From Squalus acanthias (taxonomy: Eukaryota): a DNA stretch of 64,000 nucleotides. Numbering within the stretch: position 1 is the first letter of the stretch; every line of letters begins with the position of its first letter. Shown piece by piece: positions 4,481-57,900 of this stretch. The translations under genes and the position numbers were made by a program. Location: contig CM059432.1 in the NCBI GenBank assembly GCA_030390025.1, positions 11,656,001-11,720,000 on the forward strand, in the 5' to 3' direction. The notes under the pieces are model-generated. The model saw only the letters and a program-made list of their open reading frames with translations. It searched no databases and was not told where the DNA came from.

Positions 4481-5608
4481 CCTCCAGGGGTACGTCCAAC
4501 CAGTGTTGACAGCCCGAGGAGTATCTGGGTCCCAGTCTAGATTCTGACTGGTCCAGTGGATTACTGCTGATTTTCGGGGTCAGTTTAATTATACAGAGAG
4601 GAAGACTGCTTGAACCAAATGAAGGGGAAGTTCTTATAAGACAGTCTATCTGAGCTCTTCATTGTAAGATTATCACTGCACTCTTTATTAGAGTTCTTAA
4701 GTACAATATCATATTCTGCACACTAATGAAAACGCATTTTTAGTTTAAAAAAAACATTCGCCTCGATTTTTACAGGGGTGGGTGGTGCACAGGAGAGCCC
4801 AGTAGTGAGCGAAGAACCTGGCAAGGCCGTGGTCGTGGAGGCCAATGTTCCCCATAAGGCGCGCGTCCGCGCCTCACTCGGGAGGTCCCGCACAGGCCGC
4901 TGACGAGCTGTTGCCGCTGGAAGATACCGTGCACGTTGCGGCTTAATTCCTGGAAACTCCAGGAATGATCCTGGAGGGTTGGCCGCAGTACCTGTCCCGG
5001 ATTCAGTGGCGAGTTGTGTAGTGAATTGGCGCTGGTGCCTCCGGAGGTGCCGAGAACCCCTGGAAGAAGATATAAAGGTTGCCATGAGAGAAAGGGAGCC
5101 ATTTTCGTCCTGGTTGTGGACAGAATGAAAAGGGTGGAAGGCAGGAGTGATTAAATGACATGAAACCAGCAAGTGCATTGTTGGCCTAAGGACTTCTTTG
5201 AGAAAGTGTCTGCAGCCAGGAAGTAAATGCTGCCCTGGGCTAAACTGGTTAAATTATGAGGACAGGTTGCATAGACTAGGCTTGTATTCCCTTGAGTATA
5301 GAAGATTAAGGGGTGATCTAATTGAGGCGTTCATGATGATTAAAGGAGTTGATAAGGTAGATAGAGAGAAACAATTTCCTCTGGTGGGGGTAGTCCAGAA
5401 CAAGGAGGCGCAACCTTAAAATTAGAGCTAGGCCATTCAGGGGTGATGTCAGGAAGCACTTCTTCACACAAAGGGTAGTGGAAATCTGGAACTCTCTCCC
5501 CCAAAAAGCTGTTGAGGCTGGGGGGTCAATTGAAAATTTCAAAACTGAGATGGATAGATTTTTGGAAATACTCAGCAGGTCAGGCAGCATCTGTGGAGAG
5601 AGAAACAG

Positions 5609-5645
5609 AGTTAACGTTTCAGGTCAATGACCCTTCGTCAGAACT
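5609..5645 (-). ncRNA. Minimal type I hammerhead ribozyme motif (antisense arm)
   Basis: Minus strand reads AGTT-CTGACGA-A-GGGTC(ATT)GACCT-GAAA-CG-TT-AACT. Confidence 0.8.
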
Positions 5646-5651
5646 GGAAAA

Positions 5652-5688
5652 AGTTCTGATGAAGGGTCATCGACCTGAAACGTTAACT
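5652..5688 (+). ncRNA. Minimal type I hammerhead ribozyme motif
   Basis: AGTT-CTGATGA-A-GGGTC(ATC)GACCT-GAAA-CG-TT-AACT: stem I AGTT/AACT, intact core, stem II, palindromic stem III (AACGTT), NUH=GUU. Confidence 0.8.
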
Positions 5689-5980
5689 CTGTTTTTCTCT
5701 CCACAGATGCTGCCTGACCTGCTGAGTATTTCCAGCATTTGCTGTTTTTATTTCAGATTTCCAGCATCCGCAGTATTTTGCTTTTGTATTGATAGATTTT
5801 TGTTAGGCAAGGGTATTAAGGGATGCGGAACCAAGGCGGGTAGATGGAGTTAAGATACAGATCAGCCATGATCGAATTGAATGGCCGAACAAGCTCGAGG
5901 GGCTGAATGGCCTCCTCCTGTTCCTAAAAATGTTTTCTGTCATCCTTCTAAAATGGATTTTTTCACCCCATCCATCACAG

Positions 5981-6211
5981 GTGATCGAATCCATGGGAAT
6001 TCTTGTTTACAAAGCCTTGGATTGGGGCCTGAAGGATAATGAAGAACGAGAACTCAGCCCGCCACTTGAACACTTGATAGATCGCATGACAAATATCCTG
6101 GATGAGGGACTGGCGGCAGAAGGAAACTTTGATGAAGGATACGACGCTCAGGATGAAGAGGAAGAACAGAAAGAAATTATCACCATAAGAAATTTTAAAC
6201 ACGTAATGATG
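5981..6211 (+). CDS. SPIRE1: Spire actin nucleator (SPIRE1-like), internal coding exon in the KIND domain
   Basis: Acceptor ...catcacag| and donor |gtgagt; 231 nt, phase 0/0. Encodes [38 protein letters not shown]...IRNFKHVMM, matching the Spire KIND motif YKALD[YW]GLxxxEERELSP. The paralogue (1, 2 or other) is not certain. Confidence 0.93.
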
Positions 6212-6504
6212 GTGAGTCCTCGCTTTATTTTAAATGATCATATCCTGTGCGACATGTTGTCTTGTATAACGGATATTCATTTATGGGATACTCATAAACG
6301 AGCGTAATAACTCTCACCAAGCAACACAGACCTATTTGCAATCAGGACTGACCTTTTGCTCACTATTTAAATATTTGCAGTTTTATGTTGACCTCACGGC
6401 GATCAGAGTAAGATAGATCAGTGAAATCCGTTACAAAGATGTGTGGCGCAACGCTGTACAATATAGGATTGGAGATTGGTGCCTTACCGGGGGAATGATG
6501 AGGA

Positions 6505-13612: not shown

Positions 13613-13922
13613 TATCTCTGCGCTCCTCCAATTCTGGCCTCTTGAGCATCCGCAATTTCCTTCGCTCCACCATTGGCGTCCGTGCCTTCAGCTGCCTAGG
13701 CCCTAAGCTCTGGAAACTCTCCCTAAACCTCTCCGCCTCTCCTTCATAAGAACATAAGAAATAGGAGCAGGAGTAGGCCATTCGGCCCCTCGGCCCTTCG
13801 AGCCTGCTCCGCCATTCAATAAGATCATGGCTGATCTTCGACCTCAACTCCGCCTTCCCGCACTATCCCCATATCCCTTAATTCCCTTCGTTCCCAAAAA
13901 TTTATCGACCTCTGTCTTGAAT

Positions 13923-16156
13923 TAAGGTCCTGAATTTAAACAAGGGGAATTATGATGCCATTAGACGGGAACTGAGTAGGTCTGATTGGACAACGTTCCT
14001 GGGAGGACTGGAGGTAGATAAACAATGGCAAGCATTTAAAGATAGAATGACAAAATTGCAAAAATTGTTTATACCAATCTGGCATAAAAGGAAATCTAAA
14101 AAGGTGACTCAACCGTGGATAACAGGGGAAATTAGAGACAGCATAAAATCCAAAGATAGGGCATATAAAATAGCCAAAAAAAGCGCCAGAGCGGAAGATT
14201 GGGAACAGTTTAAGATAGAGCAAAGGAGGACAAAGGGCTTAATCAAGAGGGGCAAAATAGCTTACGAAAGCAAGCTGGCGGAAAATATAAAAACTAACTC
14301 CAAAAGCTTTTATAAGTATATCAAGAGGAAAAGACTGGTGAAAACCAAAGTTGGTCCATTGCAGTCAGATATGGGGGAATATATAACGGGAAATAAGGAA
14401 ATGGCAGACCAACTAAATGCATACTTTGGGTCAGTCTTTACGAAGGAAGACACAAAAAACCTCCCTGGGATATCGGGAAAAATAGGGACATTGGCAAAGG
14501 AGGTACTGACGCAAATCAATATCTCTAAGGATATGGTGTTAAGGAAGCTAAAGGGATTGAAGGCGGACAACTCCCCAGGGCCTGATAACATGCATCCTAG
14601 GGTACTGAAGGAGGTGGCCCTAGAGATAGCGGATGCACTAAGTATGATTTTTCAGAATTCATTAGACTCGGGAACAGTGCCCATGGATTGGAGGGTAGCT
14701 AACGTTACCCCACTATTCAAAAAGGGGGGTAGGGAAAAAGCAGGTAATTACAGACCTGTAAGCCTTACATCAGTTGTGGGCAAAATGCTGGAGTCCATCA
14801 TTAAGGATGAAATAGCGGAGCACTTAGCAAATGGGGACAGGATAGGACAGAGTCAACATGGATTTACAAACGGTAAATCGTGCTTGACTAATCTATTGGA
14901 ATTTTTTGAGGGAGTAACTGGTAAAATAGATGGGGGAGAGCCAGTAGATGTGGTGTACCTGGACTTCCAAAAGGCCTTCGACAAGGTCCCACATAAAAGA
15001 TTAGCATGGAAAATTGAAGCTCATGGGATAAAGGGGAAAGTATTGACGTGGATAGAGAACTGGCTGTCAGATAGAAAACAGAGAGTTGGAATAAACGGCT
15101 CATTTTCTGAATGGCAGGCAGTAACAAGTGGGGTACCGCAGGGATCTGTCCTGGGTCCCCAGCTGTTCACAATTTACATTAATGACCTGGATCAGGGAGT
15201 CGGATGCAGCATTTCCAAATTTGCAGACGACACTAAACTAGGAGGGGGGGTGGGCTCAGAGGAGGAGACCAGGAAGCTCCAGAGCGATTTGGACAGACTG
15301 GGTGATTGGGCGGATAAATGGCAGATGCACTATAATGTGGACAAGTGCGAAGTTATCCACCTTGGGTGCAGGAACGGGAGGGCAAATTATTATTTAAATG
15401 GCAATAAATTGGGAGAGGGGGAAGTACAGAGAGACCTGGGTGTTCTTGTACACCAGTCACTGAAGGCGAGCATGCAGGTGCAACAGGCGGTCAAGAAGGC
15501 AAACGGTATGCTGGCCTTCATAGCAAAAGGGTTGGAATACAGGAACAGGGATACCTTGCTGCAGCTGTACAGGGCACTGGTGAGACCACACCTCGAGTAC
15601 TGTGTACAGTTTTGGTCGCCTCATCTGAGGAAAGATGTTCTTGCCATGGAGGGGGTGCAGCGGCGATTCACCAGGCTGATACCAGGAATGGCGGGATTGA
15701 CCTATGAGGAGAGACTATGTAGTTTAGAGATGTACACACTGGAGTTTAGAAGATTGAGAGGGGACCTCATAGAAGTGTATAAAATTCTGACAGGTCTAGA
15801 CAGACTAGATGCAGAAGGAATGTTTCCCTTGGCGGGTGAGAACAGAACTAGAGGACATAATTTAAGGATAAGGGCTAAACCATTTAGGACAGAAATGAGG
15901 GGGAATTTCTTCACTCAGAGGGTGGTGAACCTGTGGAACTCATTGCCACAGAGGGCAGTGTACGCCAGCTCATTAAATATATTTAAGAGGGAATTAGATA
16001 TATTTCTACAGGCAAAAGGGGTTAAGGGTTACGGAGAGAAGGCGGGGACGGGATACTGAATTGGAGGATCAGCCATGATCTCATTAAATGGCGGAGCAGG
16101 CTCGAAGGGCCGGATGGCCTACTCCTGCTCCTATCATCTATGTATCTATGTATCTA
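13923..16156 (+). mobile_element. Young 5'-truncated CR1-clade (HER1-like) LINE
   Basis: Open frame across almost the whole insert; (TATCTATG)n 3' tail; TSD TGAAT at 13918-13922 and 16157-16161. Confidence 0.93.
14047..16059 (+). CDS. CR1 ORF2 reverse transcriptase (5'-truncated, no endonuclease domain), 670 aa from the first ATG
   Basis: Motifs NYRPVSLTS, YLDFQKAFDKV, SGVPQGSVLGP and FADD; the frame is also open 41 codons upstream, to 13924. Confidence 0.93.
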   Translation: MTKLQKLFIPIWHKRKSKKVTQPWITGEIRDSIKSKDRAYKIAKKSARAEDWEQFKIEQRRTKGLIKRGKIAYESKLAENIKTNSKSFYKYIKRKRLVKTKVGPLQSDMGEYITGNKEMADQLNAYFGSVFTKEDTKNLPGISGKIGTLAKEVLTQINISKDMVLRKLKGLKADNSPGPDNMHPRVLKEVALEIADALSMIFQNSLDSGTVPMDWRVANVTPLFKKGGREKAGNYRPVSLTSVVGKMLESIIKDEIAEHLANGDRIGQSQHGFTNGKSCLTNLLEFFEGVTGKIDGGEPVDVVYLDFQKAFDKVPHKRLAWKIEAHGIKGKVLTWIENWLSDRKQRVGINGSFSEWQAVTSGVPQGSVLGPQLFTIYINDLDQGVGCSISKFADDTKLGGGVGSEEETRKLQSDLDRLGDWADKWQMHYNVDKCEVIHLGCRNGRANYYLNGNKLGEGEVQRDLGVLVHQSLKASMQVQQAVKKANGMLAFIAKGLEYRNRDTLLQLYRALVRPHLEYCVQFWSPHLRKDVLAMEGVQRRFTRLIPGMAGLTYEERLCSLEMYTLEFRRLRGDLIEVYKILTGLDRLDAEGMFPLAGENRTRGHNLRIRAKPFRTEMRGNFFTQRVVNLWNSLPQRAVYASSLNIFKRELDIFLQAKGVKGYGEKAGTGY

Positions 16157-17129
16157 TGAATACACTCAATGACTGAGCATCCACAGCTCTCTGGGGTAGA
16201 GAATTCGAAAGATTCACAACCCTTTGAGTGAAGAAATTTCTCCTTATCTCAGTCCTAAATGGCTGACCCCTTATTCTGAGACTGTGACCCTGTGTTCTAG
16301 ACTCCCCAGCCAGGGGAAACATTTTCCCAGCATTAACTCTGTCAAGCCCCTTAAGAATTTTATATGTTTCAATTAGGTCACCTCTCATTCTTCTAAACTC
16401 GAAGGAATATAGGCCTAGTCTACTCATTTTCTCCTCATAAGGCAATCCCCTCATCCCAGGAACCAGTCTAGTAAACTTTTGTTGCACTCCCTCTAAGGCA
16501 AGTATGTCTTTCCTTAGGTAAGGAGATCAGAACTGTACACAGTACTCCAGGTGTGGCCTCACCAACGCCCTGGTACCTCTCCTCCTTTAAGACGCTCCTT
16601 AAAACCTACCTCTTGGTCATCTGTCCCAATATCTCCTTACGTGGTTCGGTGTCAAACTTTATCTGATCATCGCTCCTGTGAAGCGCCTTGGGACGTTTTA
16701 TTACTACTGATGGGAGACTTAACCGCCAACGTTTCCCACTGTCTTCTATCTTAATCAGCTCTGCTGAACAGGCGTCAAGTACATCCGCCTGAAGCAGTCG
16801 GGGTCCTTCGTTAAACCTGCAGATCAGGGGGTCCGATGACATCGATCACCGCAGTCCTGCAGGATAGACTGATGCTCCTAGGTCAGTTACCATTTTCAAA
16901 TGTGAAGGCCATTGTAGCTTTCCTGCCAGGTGAGGGTGGCGGGATGAGGAGCCAGGGCCAGAAGAATCATAGAATCATAGAGATTTACGGTACAGAAGGA
17001 GGCCGTTCAGCCCGTCGAGTCCGTGCCGGCTTCATTGCTTCATTCATCTCCCCTCAGCCTCCTCTGTTCCAAAGAAAACAGAGTCCAGCCTATCCAATCT
17101 TTCCTCACAGCTAAAATTCTCCAGTCCTG

Positions 17130-21177: not shown

Positions 21178-21651
21178 ATTATTCTGTTTAAATTAAATAA
21201 GACGACCCACCAGAGTGCGGGGTAAGCAACACATGTTCTTTATTTGAATTATTACAAGTTGCATCAATTAAACGAAGTGACTCTGAGAATACGCAATGCT
21301 CTTGACCTTTCACCTTACTGTGGAGTAATTCGAGCTAGTCTTCACCTGCGATCCTGTGTTAACTCAGCCCGCCTTAGGATAGATTGAAGAAGTACACGTG
21401 TGTAAGACATGGAGGTGTGGAGCAGATCACAAGGGAGTGTCATTCATACTGCACAAGTAGATTTAGGGGCGGTGTGAGCCATAGATTCACACAGAATATT
21501 ACAGCACAGCAACAGGCCATTCGGCCCAACAGGGTTATGCCTCCTCCCACCTTACTTCATCTCACCCTATCAACATATCCCATAAAAGTAAAAGCAAAAT
21601 ATTGTAGATGCTGGAAATCTGAAATAGAAACAGAAGAAACACCAGAGCCAC

Positions 21652-22354: not shown

Positions 22355-22594
22355 TATTCTGCTGTAACCACTTACACCTCCTCTGGACCTATCTTTTGTT
22401 TCTTTACTTGTCCCAGTATCTCCGCCTTTTGCCTCGCACCATCATCCCTTTTGTCATTTAATCACTCCTGCCTTCCACCCGATCACCCTTTGTTCTTTTC
22501 CTGCCCCCACCTCCCCTTTTCCCTGGCTCTGTATTTACTTAAAAAGCTGTTCACCTCTAGACACCTTCCAGTTCTGCTGAAAGGTCATCGACCT
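22355..22594 (+). mobile_element. Penelope-like pseudo-LTR fragment with a broken hammerhead
   Basis: Reverse-complement relative of 57640-57870; ends AGTT-CTGCTGA-AAGGTCATCGACCT, lacking GAAA. Confidence 0.65.
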
Positions 22595-22954
22595 ATAAAA
22601 GTTAAGGTGAGCAGAATGCTTACGGGGCACGCCTGACAACTCTGAACCTAAGAATGTGTCCACGGCAGACCTGAACTTCGAACGCGGCTTTATATTGTAA
22701 ACAAAATGGTGACAGATTTTTAAAGAAAAGGAATTGAGTGATTTGCTTGGTTCATCTTCTCCTTTCTCATGTTGGTTGATTCTTGTCATTCAGAATTGGC
22801 AGTGTCTCATGGAGATTTTCTAGCTGTTTTTGCTCACTTTTGATTTGTACGTTTCCTACCTCCGCAATTCTGATTGTCATGTTTTATTTTGAGTCAGTCA
22901 ACAAAGTGGGACACCAGAGCATGACGCCTGCAGTTGAATGGTGCTTTGTTTTGA

Positions 22955-46300: not shown

Positions 46301-46554
46301 CAGCTGTAGTCCATGTGTTGTCAGTTCCTACTCGGCCCAATTGCAGGCTGTAAGGAAGGACCGCAAAAACTGTACAATTAAGGTCAGAAGAAGTTCATGA
46401 ATGTTGAAAATCTGACATAAAAACAGAGAAATGCCCATGTGGGTCAGTCAGCATCTGAGATAGAGAAGCTAGGTCGACGATTCGGGTTTTCACTTGGGTG
46501 GAGTGAAAGGTACGCGACTAAAGCTTTTCTTCCTTTTTGTTTTTCTCTCGTCAG

Positions 46555-46680
46555 TTGTGCGCTGCTCACCTAACGACACCGCCAGAGGCTCCGAACCATT
46601 ACCAGGCCGTGTGCCGGGCACTGTTTGCAGAGTCCATGGAGTTACGGACCTTCTTGGCCAAAATCAAAAGTGCTAAAGAG
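46555..46680 (+). CDS. SPIRE1: Spire (SPIRE1-like) next coding exon, end of the KIND domain
   Basis: Long pyrimidine tract + tcag|, donor |gtaaga; 126 nt, phase 0/0. Encodes [42 protein letters not shown], containing the Spire hallmark [10 protein letters not shown]. This frame is not in the ORF track. Confidence 0.95.
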
Positions 46681-50660: not shown

Positions 50661-51024
50661 TGAGCCTCTAGGCCTGATTTTAACCAGGAGAGGAAATTGG
50701 AGGGGTAGGGAAGGGTGGGTGCGGGTGCGTAATATGGGCGCCAACCCACACCCCCTCCCCCCCCAACCTCGGCAGAGTCAGGCCCGGATGATTTTAACTC
50801 CAAGGCCTCTTCTGCCTGTTGACTGCCCGGAATGGGCGGGAAGCCGCAACTGGTCGGCGGGCGTGAGCAGAATGTAACTCGTGACAGGTGGGTTTTGGGA
50901 GTGGGGTGGTCTCCACGTTCGGGAAGGTGGGAGCCTGAGGAAGGGGAACCATAAAACTTCCATGTGGGGGCCCGGATGAAAGTTTAAAAAAAAAGTTTAA
51001 AACTTACCTGTTTGGACTTCTTCA

Positions 51025-52063
51025 GACCTTGGCTCCCCTTCCCACTATCGTCCCCCAGCGGGAGAGTTCTGACCTTGGCTCCCCTTCCCACTATCGTCCC
51101 CCAGCGGGAGAGTTCTGACCCTGGATCCCCTTCCCACTATCTTCCCCCAGCGGGAGAGTTCTGACCCTGGATCCCCTTCCCACTATCTTCCCCCAGCGGG
51201 AGGGTTCTGACCCTGGATCCCGTTCCCACTATCTTCCCCCAGCGAGAGAGTTCTGACCCTGGATCCCCTTCCCACTATCGTCCCCCAGCGGGAGAGTTCT
51301 GACCCTGGATCCCCTTCCCACTATCTTCCCCCAGCGGGAGGGTTCTGACCCTGGATCCCGTTCCCACTATCTTCCCCCAGCGAGAGAGTTCTGACCCTGG
51401 ATCCCCTTCCCACTATCGTCCCCCAGCGGGAGAGTTCTGACCCTGGATCCCCTTCCCACTATCTTCCCTCAGCGGGAGAGTTCTGACCCTGGATCCCCTT
51501 CCCACTATCGTCCCCCAGCGGGAGAGTTCTGACCCTGGATCCTCTTCCCGCTATCGTCCCCCAGCGGGAGAGTTCTGACCCTGTATCCCCTTCCCCCTAT
51601 CGTCTCCCAGCGGGAGAGTTCTGACCCTGGATCCTCTTCCCACTATCGTCCCCCAGCGGGAGGGTTCTGACCCTGTATCCCCTTCCCCCTATCGTCTCCC
51701 AGCGGGAGAGTTCTGACCCTGGATTCCCTTCCCACTATCGTCTCCCAGCGGGAGGGTTCTGACCCTGGATCCCCTTCCCACTATCATCTCCCAGCGGGAG
51801 AGTTCTGACCCTGGATCCTCTTCCCACTATCGTCCCCCAGCGGGAGGGTTCTGACCCTGGATCCCCTTCCCGCTATCGTCTCCCAGCGGGAGAGTTCTGA
51901 CCCTGGATCCCCTTCCCGCTATCGTCCCCCAGCGGGAGGGTTCTGACCCTGGATCCCCTTCCCACTATCGTCCCCCAGCGGGAGGGTTCTGACCCTGGAT
52001 CCCCTTCCCGCTTTCGTCCCCCAGCGGGAGGGTTCTGACCCTGGATCCCCTTCCCACTATCGT
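51025..52063. repeat. 46-bp minisatellite, ~22.5 copies
   Basis: Unit GACCCTGGATCCCCTTCCCACTATCGTCCCCCAGCGGGAGAGTTCT, head-to-tail with no spacers. Confidence 0.96.
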
Positions 52064-53185
52064 GGGGAAGACACAACACCTTCCCCGCTCGGGCCTCCAG
52101 TTAAAATTACAGTCGGGCTTGGATGATGCCATCAGACTCTGATCTGCCTGGTCTAAGGTGGGACCCCACTGGCTTCAGACGGATGCCCTTGGGCCTGCTG
52201 AGAAGAGCAGGTTAAAATAGGAGCCAGCGGGAGCGGTGCAGGATGTTAACGGGTAAGTCTGCCCGTTGATTGTAATGGCCCGGTTTCCTGGTAGGGTTAA
52301 AATCGCCCCTTGTACCTTGATGCTGAGTATATTGAGCAGTCCATTCAGACCAAAGGAAATCAATAAGTGCTACAATGGGTGCCGTGATTGACAGGTTCAG
52401 GACAGAGATCAATCAAGCAGAGCAATCTAGTGGGCTAAACTCTCAGCCGGTCTGGAGGGATAGAGCTATTAACTTGCAGGTGAAAGATCGTTAAAGGTAA
52501 TTAACGGGACGCCGTATTTTAAAATGAACAGTTAACCATTAAAAAAAAAGGCCTGCTCCCAATCCTTGGCTTCTTGCCATCTCAGGATGTATGGATGACC
52601 TTTGGACTGTGATGGTGTTCCTGCCTCACCACTCGTCATTCTACAATTGAAGGTCTCCTCGCCTTGTACGATAATTTTGTCCTTGTAGAGACAAGATTTT
52701 AACCCGACTCGCTCAGCAGAAACCTGGCGGGTGGGCAGTTAAAATCACCCTGGCTCTGACCTGTCCGAGAGCCGCCATGATCGCAACATCTGCAATTTTA
52801 GTGCAGTATCAAAATACTGCAGATGCTGGAACCTGAAATAAAAAAAACCAGGAAATGCTGGAAATACTCAGCAGGTCAGGCAGCATCCTTGGAGAGAGAA
52901 AGAGAGAGAGACAGAACAGGAGAACTTTTATCTCAAGTACCTCCCTATCTCTGGCAAATCAGCGTAATATTTGGTGGGGTGCAAAAACCAGCCTTCCGCC
53001 CGATCCCGTCTGTTAAAATTACCCCCTTACCAAAGTCTAAAAAGGTTCCAGCGTTTTCTGTTGTTATTTCTAAAAAGGTTATGGTGGTACAGCAGACGTC
53101 GTCGGGCTAAACCTTTTCATGTGATTTTTATGCATCAAGTTGAGTGCGATCATTGGATCTATCAACAACAACAACTTGTATTTAT

Positions 53186-54819: not shown

Positions 54820-55189
54820 TGTCACGATACAGAACGTGACTTGACATCATGGCCGGTCTTCCCAGGTGTTTTTTTTTTAAAAAGACTAACACAAGAACCT
54901 ACACAAATTGACAGGATATGCAGCCAGCAGGTGGTTTGACACGTTGGACCCCCTGGGACACATCTCATTGTCTTGGCTGTGCTCTTTGATGTAGGGAAAG
55001 ATTTGAATATATTTTGTCTGTGTTTAAATTGTGAATTCTGGGAGATTCTCTCACTGCTAACTTACCTGACGAAGGAGCGAACTGTTCCGAAAGCTTGTAA
55101 AATTAAATAAATCTGTTGGACTATAACCTGGTGTTGTGCGACTTCTCATTTTTGTCCACCCCAGTCCAACGCCGGCATCTCCACATCAA
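54820..55189 (+). mobile_element. Penelope-like pseudo-LTR (second family), 370 bp, inserted in a minus-strand DeuSINE
   Basis: 13-bp TSD GATCTTTTACATC (54807-54819 / 55190-55202); hammerhead core followed by AATAAA and an internal inverted repeat GTTGGACT/AGTCCAAC. Confidence 0.8.
55062..55100 (+). ncRNA. Minimal type I hammerhead ribozyme motif
   Basis: TTAC-CTGACGA-A-GGAGC(GAACT)GTTCC-GAAA-GC-TT-GTAA: stem I TTAC/GTAA, stem II with one G-U pair, palindromic stem III (AAGCTT). Confidence 0.75.
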
Positions 55190-56174
55190 GATCTTTTACA
55201 TCCACCTTAGAGAGCAAACGGGGCCTCGGTTTAACGTCTCATCCGAATGACGGCACCTGTGACAGTGCAGCACTCCACTGGAGAGTCAGCCTTGATTTTT
55301 TGTGCTCAAGCCTCTGGAGTGGGACTTGAACCCACAACCTTCTAATTCAGAGGCGAGGGTGCTGCCCACTGAGCCACAGCTGACATGGTGAGGGTCACGA
55401 AACAAGCCAACTGACCCGACAAGCTGCCCTTTGTACTTGGTCACAGCACCCCACCACACCCCTTCCTCGCTTTATTCCCATACTTCACAATCCTCTCTCC
55501 TCCACAAACACACCACCTTGTCCCTTTATCTACCCTATCTGTTCCCCTTAATATCTTGAAAACTTTGATCAGATCACCCCTTAACCATCTAAATTCCAGG
55601 GAATACAACCCTAGTTTGTGTAATCTCTCCTCATAATTTAACTCTTGGAGTCATTCTGGTAAACCTACGCTGCACTCCCTCCAAGGCCAATATATCCTTC
55701 CTAAGGTGTGGTGCCCAGAACTGCTCACAGTGTTCCAGGTGTGGTCTAACCAGGGCTGTGTAAAGCTGAAACATGACTTCTACCCTCTCGTAACTTGGTG
55801 GCTTGAATGTTTCTCTTGCATCTCAGTAACTAAAACTCTACACATTGCTCAAGGTGAGTATGACCCGGGCACTGCAGATTGTATACGACTTACTCTGACT
55901 CATTTTACTGCTAGCAATATAGTTCAACATTGCGTTGGTTTTCTTTATTGCTGCTCCACATAGCTGTATGTAAATGTTGAGTCTCCCCCAGATCTCTTGC
56001 ACCTTTAGCTAGTTCTACACAACAGTGCATGGACGACACACATTCTTCCTTTAATGTACAGTACCGTAAACTTGTCTGTATTAAATTTCATCTGACACCG
56101 TTTCCAGATTTTATTTAACTCCTTTCAGAGGTCCCCGGCTGCTTATTTAGAATCAACCACTCCCTTTCCCTCAT

Positions 56175-57564: not shown

Positions 57565-57900
57565 GAAATAAAAACAGAGAATGCTGGAAACACTCAGCAG
57601 GTCAGGCAGCATCTGTGGAGAGAGAAACAGAGTTAACGTTTCAGGTCGAAGACCCTTCGTCAGAACTGGAAAAAGTTGGAGATGGAACAAGTTTTTAAGC
57701 AAGTGTAGGGGCAGGGAAAGGGGGGAGCAAAGGACAAAAGGGAAGGTCTGTGATAGGATGGAAGGCAGGAGAGATTAAGAGACAAAAGGGATGATGGTGC
57801 AAGGCAAAAGGAGATGGTAATGGGACAAGTTAAGAAACAAAAGATGGCTCTAGATGAAGTTTAAATGGCAATGGCAGAATGAAAGACAGCTGCCATGTGA
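57565..57900 (-). mobile_element. Penelope-like pseudo-LTR fragment (same family as 5564)
   Basis: Near-identical to the left arm at 5564-5655, then continues without inversion. Confidence 0.8.
57631..57667 (-). ncRNA. Minimal type I hammerhead ribozyme motif
   Basis: Minus strand AGTT-CTGACGA-A-GGGTC(TTC)GACCT-GAAA-CG-TT-AACT. Confidence 0.8.

Follow-up and report, generated by a model that had tools for sequence, protein, structure and literature searches.

Head-to-head end fragments of an abundant repeat, likely a dead Penelope-like insertion, in an intron of a spire1-like gene of Squalus acanthias

Several described systems resemble the insert reported here. For Pen2a of Adineta, an adjacent, inverted and 5'-truncated pLTR overlapping the direct pLTR was described, together with a one-sided 31-bp tail, TSDs of 8–10 bp and frequent head-to-head palindromic junctions, and self-priming on the antisense template was proposed (PMC3846280). 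The adjacent inverted pLTR form is presented as a general feature of Penelope-like elements (PLEs) in PMC8557442. In Poseidon PAc of Anolis (PMC11167929), the enzyme, a predicted dimer with a preference for ATT, cleaves and extends both strands, and the ribozyme required protein, was dispensable for insertion and gave no in vivo RNA-seq ends at the site. Among minimal hammerheads (min-HHRs), single motifs showed no cleavage and dimers low cleavage, and dual motifs were found on opposite strands, 100–700 bp apart (PMC4209133); among hammerhead dimers of Xenopus, one of nine was cleaved (bioRxiv 10.64898/2026.07.22.740005). In frog, palindromic repeats undergo heavy hyper-editing, which was also found in a shark relative (PMC5625713). 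The form of the insert has thus already been described, and the locus is one more copy. We are confident in reading it as head-to-head short end-fragments of a very abundant repeat, likely left by a Penelope-like insertion that is dead and 5'-truncated and probably has no consequence for spire.

The window, i.e., the whole 64,000-nt stretch of S. acanthias DNA that was analyzed, contains the KIND-domain exon of a spire1-like gene at 5981–6211 on the plus strand (Pfam E = 4e-24). The product of this exon shares 95% identity with a Pristiophorus japonicus spire1-like protein, the best 43 matches in a protein search are all from cartilaginous fish, and the peptide also matches human Spire1 structures. 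The next spire exons follow at 46555 and about 63467 (+), and the three exons together indicate that the plus strand is the sense of the spire pre-mRNA. The true acceptor AG of the KIND exon is at 5979–5980, with the end of the insert 190 nt upstream, which agrees with the first-pass annotation of an insertion about 190 nt before the acceptor of a Spire exon. Just 3' of the exon, at 6256, organisms B and D of the public runs carry a 10–11-nt insertion relative to the window.

The insertion splits an older LINE 3' end at 5248–5926 (+), which is homologous to many LINE copies in the window and which we take to be CR1-like. Its flanks, 5248–5549 and 5803–5926, belong to a single LINE 3' end and are homologous to an RVT_1 ORF at 13921–16056 (+) over its end and its 3' flank. 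This ORF is a 712-codon stop-free LINE ORF2 fragment that overlaps inverted LINE pieces at 15570–16572. A Pfam search with the 56-aa peptide of the LINE flank gave no match. At 5888–5926, public contigs show many joints stepping back 33–39 nt, and the 3' end of this LINE family forms short tandem repeats elsewhere in the public-run genomes. Long tandem repeats were also found by self-comparison of the window at 1030–2922 (period about 27/54 nt) and 51021–52063 (period about 46/92 nt).

The insert is a fold-back of two copies of the element end, an inverted and shorter left arm at 5563–5645 (−) and a sense right arm at 5652–5734 (+). The arms measure 83 nt each, are 96% complementary and enclose a 6-nt loop at 5646–5651 (+), which, with the next 4 nt, continues the antisense of the family's upstream sequence. 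Three mismatches are present (5637G/5660T, 5626A/5671C and 5602G/5695T), appearing as two G-U and one A-C in plus-strand RNA. The spacer and mismatches are as first annotated, whereas the arms had been given as 82 bp. The right arm is followed by a one-sided 3' extension at 5735–5790 (+), which includes an optional ~35-nt tail and leaves the right arm ~56 nt longer than the left. The predicted folding energy of the 227-nt insert is −167.2 kcal/mol (z = −25), and none of 200 shuffled sequences was equally stable. The arm pair at 5563–5734 is the tightest of the 193 inverted BLAST pairs found when the window was compared against itself, 19 of which lie within 3 kb.

A TSD flanks the insert. Twelve base pairs are perfectly repeated (5553–5564 = 5791–5802), and if one mismatch, at 5552, is allowed, the repeat reaches 15 bp (5550–5564 and 5788–5802, +). 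The 11-bp TSD annotated at first is therefore real but forms only part of the repeat. Since the uninterrupted target can be seen in paralogous LINE contigs and in paralogues within the window, the TSD is read as 15 bp long, the left copy having since acquired one change. The target and the element share nucleotides at both junctions: the last 2 nt of the left copy also pair with the right arm, and the first 3 nt of the right copy also match the end of the element.

These features are the ones expected of Penelope-like (EN+) insertions, namely a min-HHR in the pLTR, a head-to-head adjacent inverted 5'-truncated copy, a short TSD at an AT-rich target and an optional 30–40-bp tail on one side only, the left arm stopping ~20 nt short of the nearer family end. 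The insert shares the overlapping head-to-head inverted 5'-truncated copy with Adineta Pen2a and with the scheme in PMC8557442, and shares with Pen2a the tail on one end only, the TSD, the AT-rich target and the insertion into a non-LTR element (PMC3846280). In contrast to Pen2a, only stumps of about 140 and 93 nt are left in the shark insert, with no ORF, and the overlap is 4 nt rather than 15 and the TSD 12–15 rather than 8–10 bp. Poseidon PAc likewise has a pLTR hammerhead upstream of two alternative 3' ends and an ATT at the right junction (PMC11167929). The first-pass assignment to a Penelope-type element is thus upheld by motif, architecture, tail and TSD, all of which match published descriptions, and the insert likely consists of end-fragments of a dead, 5'-truncated PLE.

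No RT or GIY-YIG ORF occurs inside the insert. An open frame of 44 codons at 5659–5790 (+) starts at an ATG that lies 26 nt upstream of the predicted cut in the right arm, the same spacing as for the ORF start of PAc (PMC11167929); the left arm and a sister copy at 57.6 kb, however, have ACG in place of this ATG. One protein search with this frame returned no match, and the other returned 15 proteins, none of which has an RT or GIY-YIG domain; 10 of the 15 were looked up and none is named. The only matches are of a kind that we regard as spurious, repeat-derived predicted proteins. Because no link to an RT or GIY-YIG ORF was found, membership among the Penelope elements rests on motif and architecture.

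The sequence also suggests how the insertion may have arisen. The element endonuclease would have made staggered nicks 12–15 nt apart at an AT-rich spot of the old LINE, and two copies would have met with their 5' ends at an inverted microhomology of 4 nt, native to the element and located just upstream of the hammerhead. This microhomology, by which the arms overlap, is seen by comparison with one sister copy, at 57.6 kb. The joint may have formed by twin priming, in which each target strand primes one reverse transcript and the two anneal at the 4 nt, or by self-priming of an antisense template, as proposed for Pen2a (PMC3846280). The two-strand extension and predicted dimer of the PAc enzyme favor twin priming (PMC11167929), but both routes are compatible with this single locus. 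A simple snap-back of tail-primed first-strand cDNA is excluded, because the loop would then lie on the opposite strand and the second arm could not be the longer one, whereas the loop is antisense on the plus strand and the right arm is ~56 nt longer.

The repeat family to which the insert belongs is extremely abundant in the four of 21 public runs that were analyzed. Over the insert, contig depths add up to 1.4–7.1 million in three DNA-type runs, compared with 6–8 on the unique flank, a measure that does not equal copy number. Five further family fragments occur in the window, all of them single, unpaired pieces with variable ends. Two are longer copies with ~250 nt upstream of the hammerhead, one at 57565–57880 (−) with an intact hammerhead and without the tail, and one at 22356–22605 (+) with a decayed hammerhead core; their upstream ~250 nt are 76% alike. 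The other three are short 3' fragments at 52810–52906, 21590–21633 and 46401–46467, all on the minus strand and antisense to spire. Among window copies and public contigs, the 3' ends of the family fall near 5752–5754 or 5787–5790, ~35 nt apart. No family copy was found in viral contigs, and six metagenome and three prokaryote genome matches were all rejected as chance matches of 21–31 nt in GC-rich DNA.

Relative to the 57.6-kb copy, all three arm differences are C-to-T changes on the sense strand of the element, two of them at CpG; none is compensatory and none falls in the catalytic core. This pattern fits a young insertion under ordinary decay, and the intact core would also be compatible with selection.

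A descriptor scan of the window found four hammerhead matches, compared with none in each of 100 first-order Markov simulations. Two are in the insert, at 5652–5688 (+, predicted cut after 5684) and 5609–5645 (−, predicted cut after 5613), one is in the sister copy at 57631–57667 (−), and one, at about 55062–55100 (+), belongs to a different family. The motif at 5652–5688 is of the minimal type I, with the core boxes, a stem I of 4 bp, a stem II of 5 bp with a G-U closing pair, the palindromic 15.2–16.2 positions and an NUH triplet, here GUU. Its core (GAAA-C-G-U-U) has no helix III loop, which makes it a minimal and not a complete monomeric hammerhead; of the complete fold that had been annotated on each strand, the presence of the motif on both strands is borne out and its completeness is not. 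The other family, at 55062–55190 (+), has a 6-bp stem II and an AAGCUU palindrome, followed by ~90 nt that resemble a Poseidon-type tail.

The motif fits the metazoan Penelope min-HHR consensus in the supplement of PMC4209133. Like the min-HHRs described there, it has CUGANGA plus an extra purine, a 5-bp stem II, a 4-bp stem I, GAAA-C-G-U-H without loop 3 and a U-rich 5' flank. It differs in that its 10.1–11.1 pair is G-U instead of G-C, although G-U and CGUU ends occur among the variants listed, and in that the two opposite-strand motifs of the insert are only 6 nt apart. No shark sequence is present in the searched part of this supplement, the remainder of which might hold shark entries. A comparison with Rfam hammerhead models had been proposed at first annotation, and the covariance search of the insert, at all thresholds tried, returned no hammerhead at either arm, only sub-threshold miRNA-hairpin and other chance matches. 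This absence is one half of what had been named at first annotation as refuting the reading. None of the four descriptor matches in the window, the sister copy at 57.6 kb included, reached the gathering score, so the Rfam miss is not special to the copy at 5563–5734. Lacking a helix III loop, each motif has no active monomer fold by the logic of PMC4209133, and cleavage by one copy alone is improbable.

The sense ribozyme had also been said to be locked in a duplex by its own antisense copy, and the folding model predicts just this, the cost of the sense hammerhead fold being 54.9 kcal/mol in context and 1.7 kcal/mol without the left arm. In the pre-mRNA, the 83-bp hairpin would hold the sense hammerhead shut. 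The lock is probably superfluous, because ribozymes of this kind depend on a dimer or on protein. The hairpin is also a likely ADAR target, by analogy with palindromic Harbinger repeats (PMC5625713). The notion of self-silencing as a meaningful feature is not supported, as monomeric min-HHRs are uncleaved (PMC4209133), the PAc ribozyme needs protein (PMC11167929) and the head-to-head form is a routine by-product of insertion (PMC3846280, PMC8557442).

Nor is it supported that closeness to the splice site matters, contrary to the first-pass annotation. The usual branch-point zone is 18–40 nt from the acceptor. The hairpin ends ~246 nt before the acceptor and is far from that zone. In a presumed RNA run (X12), a 3689-nt contig covers 5979–6211 without differences and is spliced at the normal site, and the contigs of this run, as contigs only, give no other depth on 5940–5978. 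The exon is spliced normally as far as the X12 contigs show, in which rare isoforms drop out and whose source animal may lack the insert. The intron with the insert would thus be removed normally, and the case for neutrality draws on this one RNA run.

One alternative gives the fold-back a role in splicing, namely that the hairpin hides a strong cryptic 3' splice site brought in by the sense copy and so allows a copy in sense orientation to be retained in the intron, which we consider improbable. By a crude pyrimidine count, the site at 5688–5706 (+), with 13 of 15 pyrimidines and a CAG, is stronger than the true acceptor (11/15), and only 32 of the 687 clean YAG sites on the plus strand of the window score as high. 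This site lies inside the duplex, with a predicted unpaired probability of 0.0, compared with 0.68 at the true acceptor, and use of a cryptic acceptor would shift the frame or meet stops. Furthermore, the single family copies with a pyrimidine tract are all antisense to spire (4/4), and the other sense fragment ends before the tracts. However, a set of four would be antisense by chance one time in 16, and a second site at 5738–5756 (+), with 12 of 15 pyrimidines, lies outside the long duplex with an unpaired probability of 0.32. Neither a donor nor an exonised form of the insert was seen in the contigs of four public runs. The literature covered, with subscription journals, Repbase and Dfam outside it, held nothing on point on splice-site masking by PLEs and no report on point of the family in shark. 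The broader proposal, that sense ends of this Penelope-like family carry strong acceptors in shark introns and that a fold-back survives selection by burying both acceptor and ribozyme, likewise has a slim chance of being right.

Another alternative makes the insert a regulatory switch, in which a self-silenced ribozyme and ADAR act near the acceptor to tune the cleavage or splicing of spire pre-mRNA, editing freeing the hammerhead. The predicted lock, the catalytic core intact on both arms and the A-C mismatch at 5626 are in keeping with it. The hyper-editing of palindromic repeats in frog, with the shark relative in the species list, points the same way (PMC5625713). The palindromic Harbinger repeats of Xenopus resemble the insert in being ~200 nt of self-complementary sequence that forms dsRNA without a neighboring inverted copy, but they belong to a DNA transposon with a palindromic consensus, whereas the shark insert is a retroelement by-product for which editing is only predicted (PMC5625713). 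Such a switch is nevertheless very improbable. The min-HHR monomers are uncleaved (PMC4209133), the PAc ribozyme needs protein and gave no in vivo RNA ends at the site (PMC11167929), and eight of the nine Xenopus dimers were not cleaved (bioRxiv 10.64898/2026.07.22.740005). The only other plus-strand hammerhead in the window, at 55062, is from another family and 49 kb from the insert, and the dimer, as modelled, reaches its cofold minimum (−19.7) in a fold more stable than the hammerhead (−9.9). Editing would presumably strike the core adenosines too, and inverted pairs are common in the window. There is also no RNA-only excess of A-to-G places, with four in X12 and five in the DNA run X1, as counted in contigs that pool the whole family and are not specific to the locus.

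A MITE-like unit, mobile as an entire hairpin, is an exceedingly improbable identity for the insert. The TSD and the length of the inverted arms would suit such a unit, but the arms are not terminal, a 56-nt extension being present on one side, and the five other fragments in the window are single and unpaired, with variable ends.

We attach hardly any probability to the palindrome being an assembly artefact from a fold-back read or misjoin. Among the contigs listed from four public runs, none bridges the junctions, which would be in line with an artefact, yet contigs built from short reads break off at a repeat of such abundance. The three arm differences of CpG-decay type and the flanking TSD argue against an artefact, as does the LINE, which continues in register across the insert. 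No orthologous empty site was found among the listed contigs of the four runs, and the joints that skip the insert are most likely paralogous LINE copies. Finally, a non-LTR retrozyme, with head-to-tail tandem units bearing hammerheads, is rejected by the head-to-head arrangement of the insert.

Taken as a likely Penelope-like by-product, the single locus matters little. Its value lies in being a clean junction specimen, with its 4-nt inverted microhomology, loop strand and unequal arms, for the question of how head-to-head copies of Penelope elements are made. If the masking of a cryptic acceptor were true after all, a by-product of insertion would work as an inbuilt safety catch and influence how the copies of a huge repeat family are oriented within genes, and if it held genome-wide, hairpin insertions would be shown to protect host splicing.
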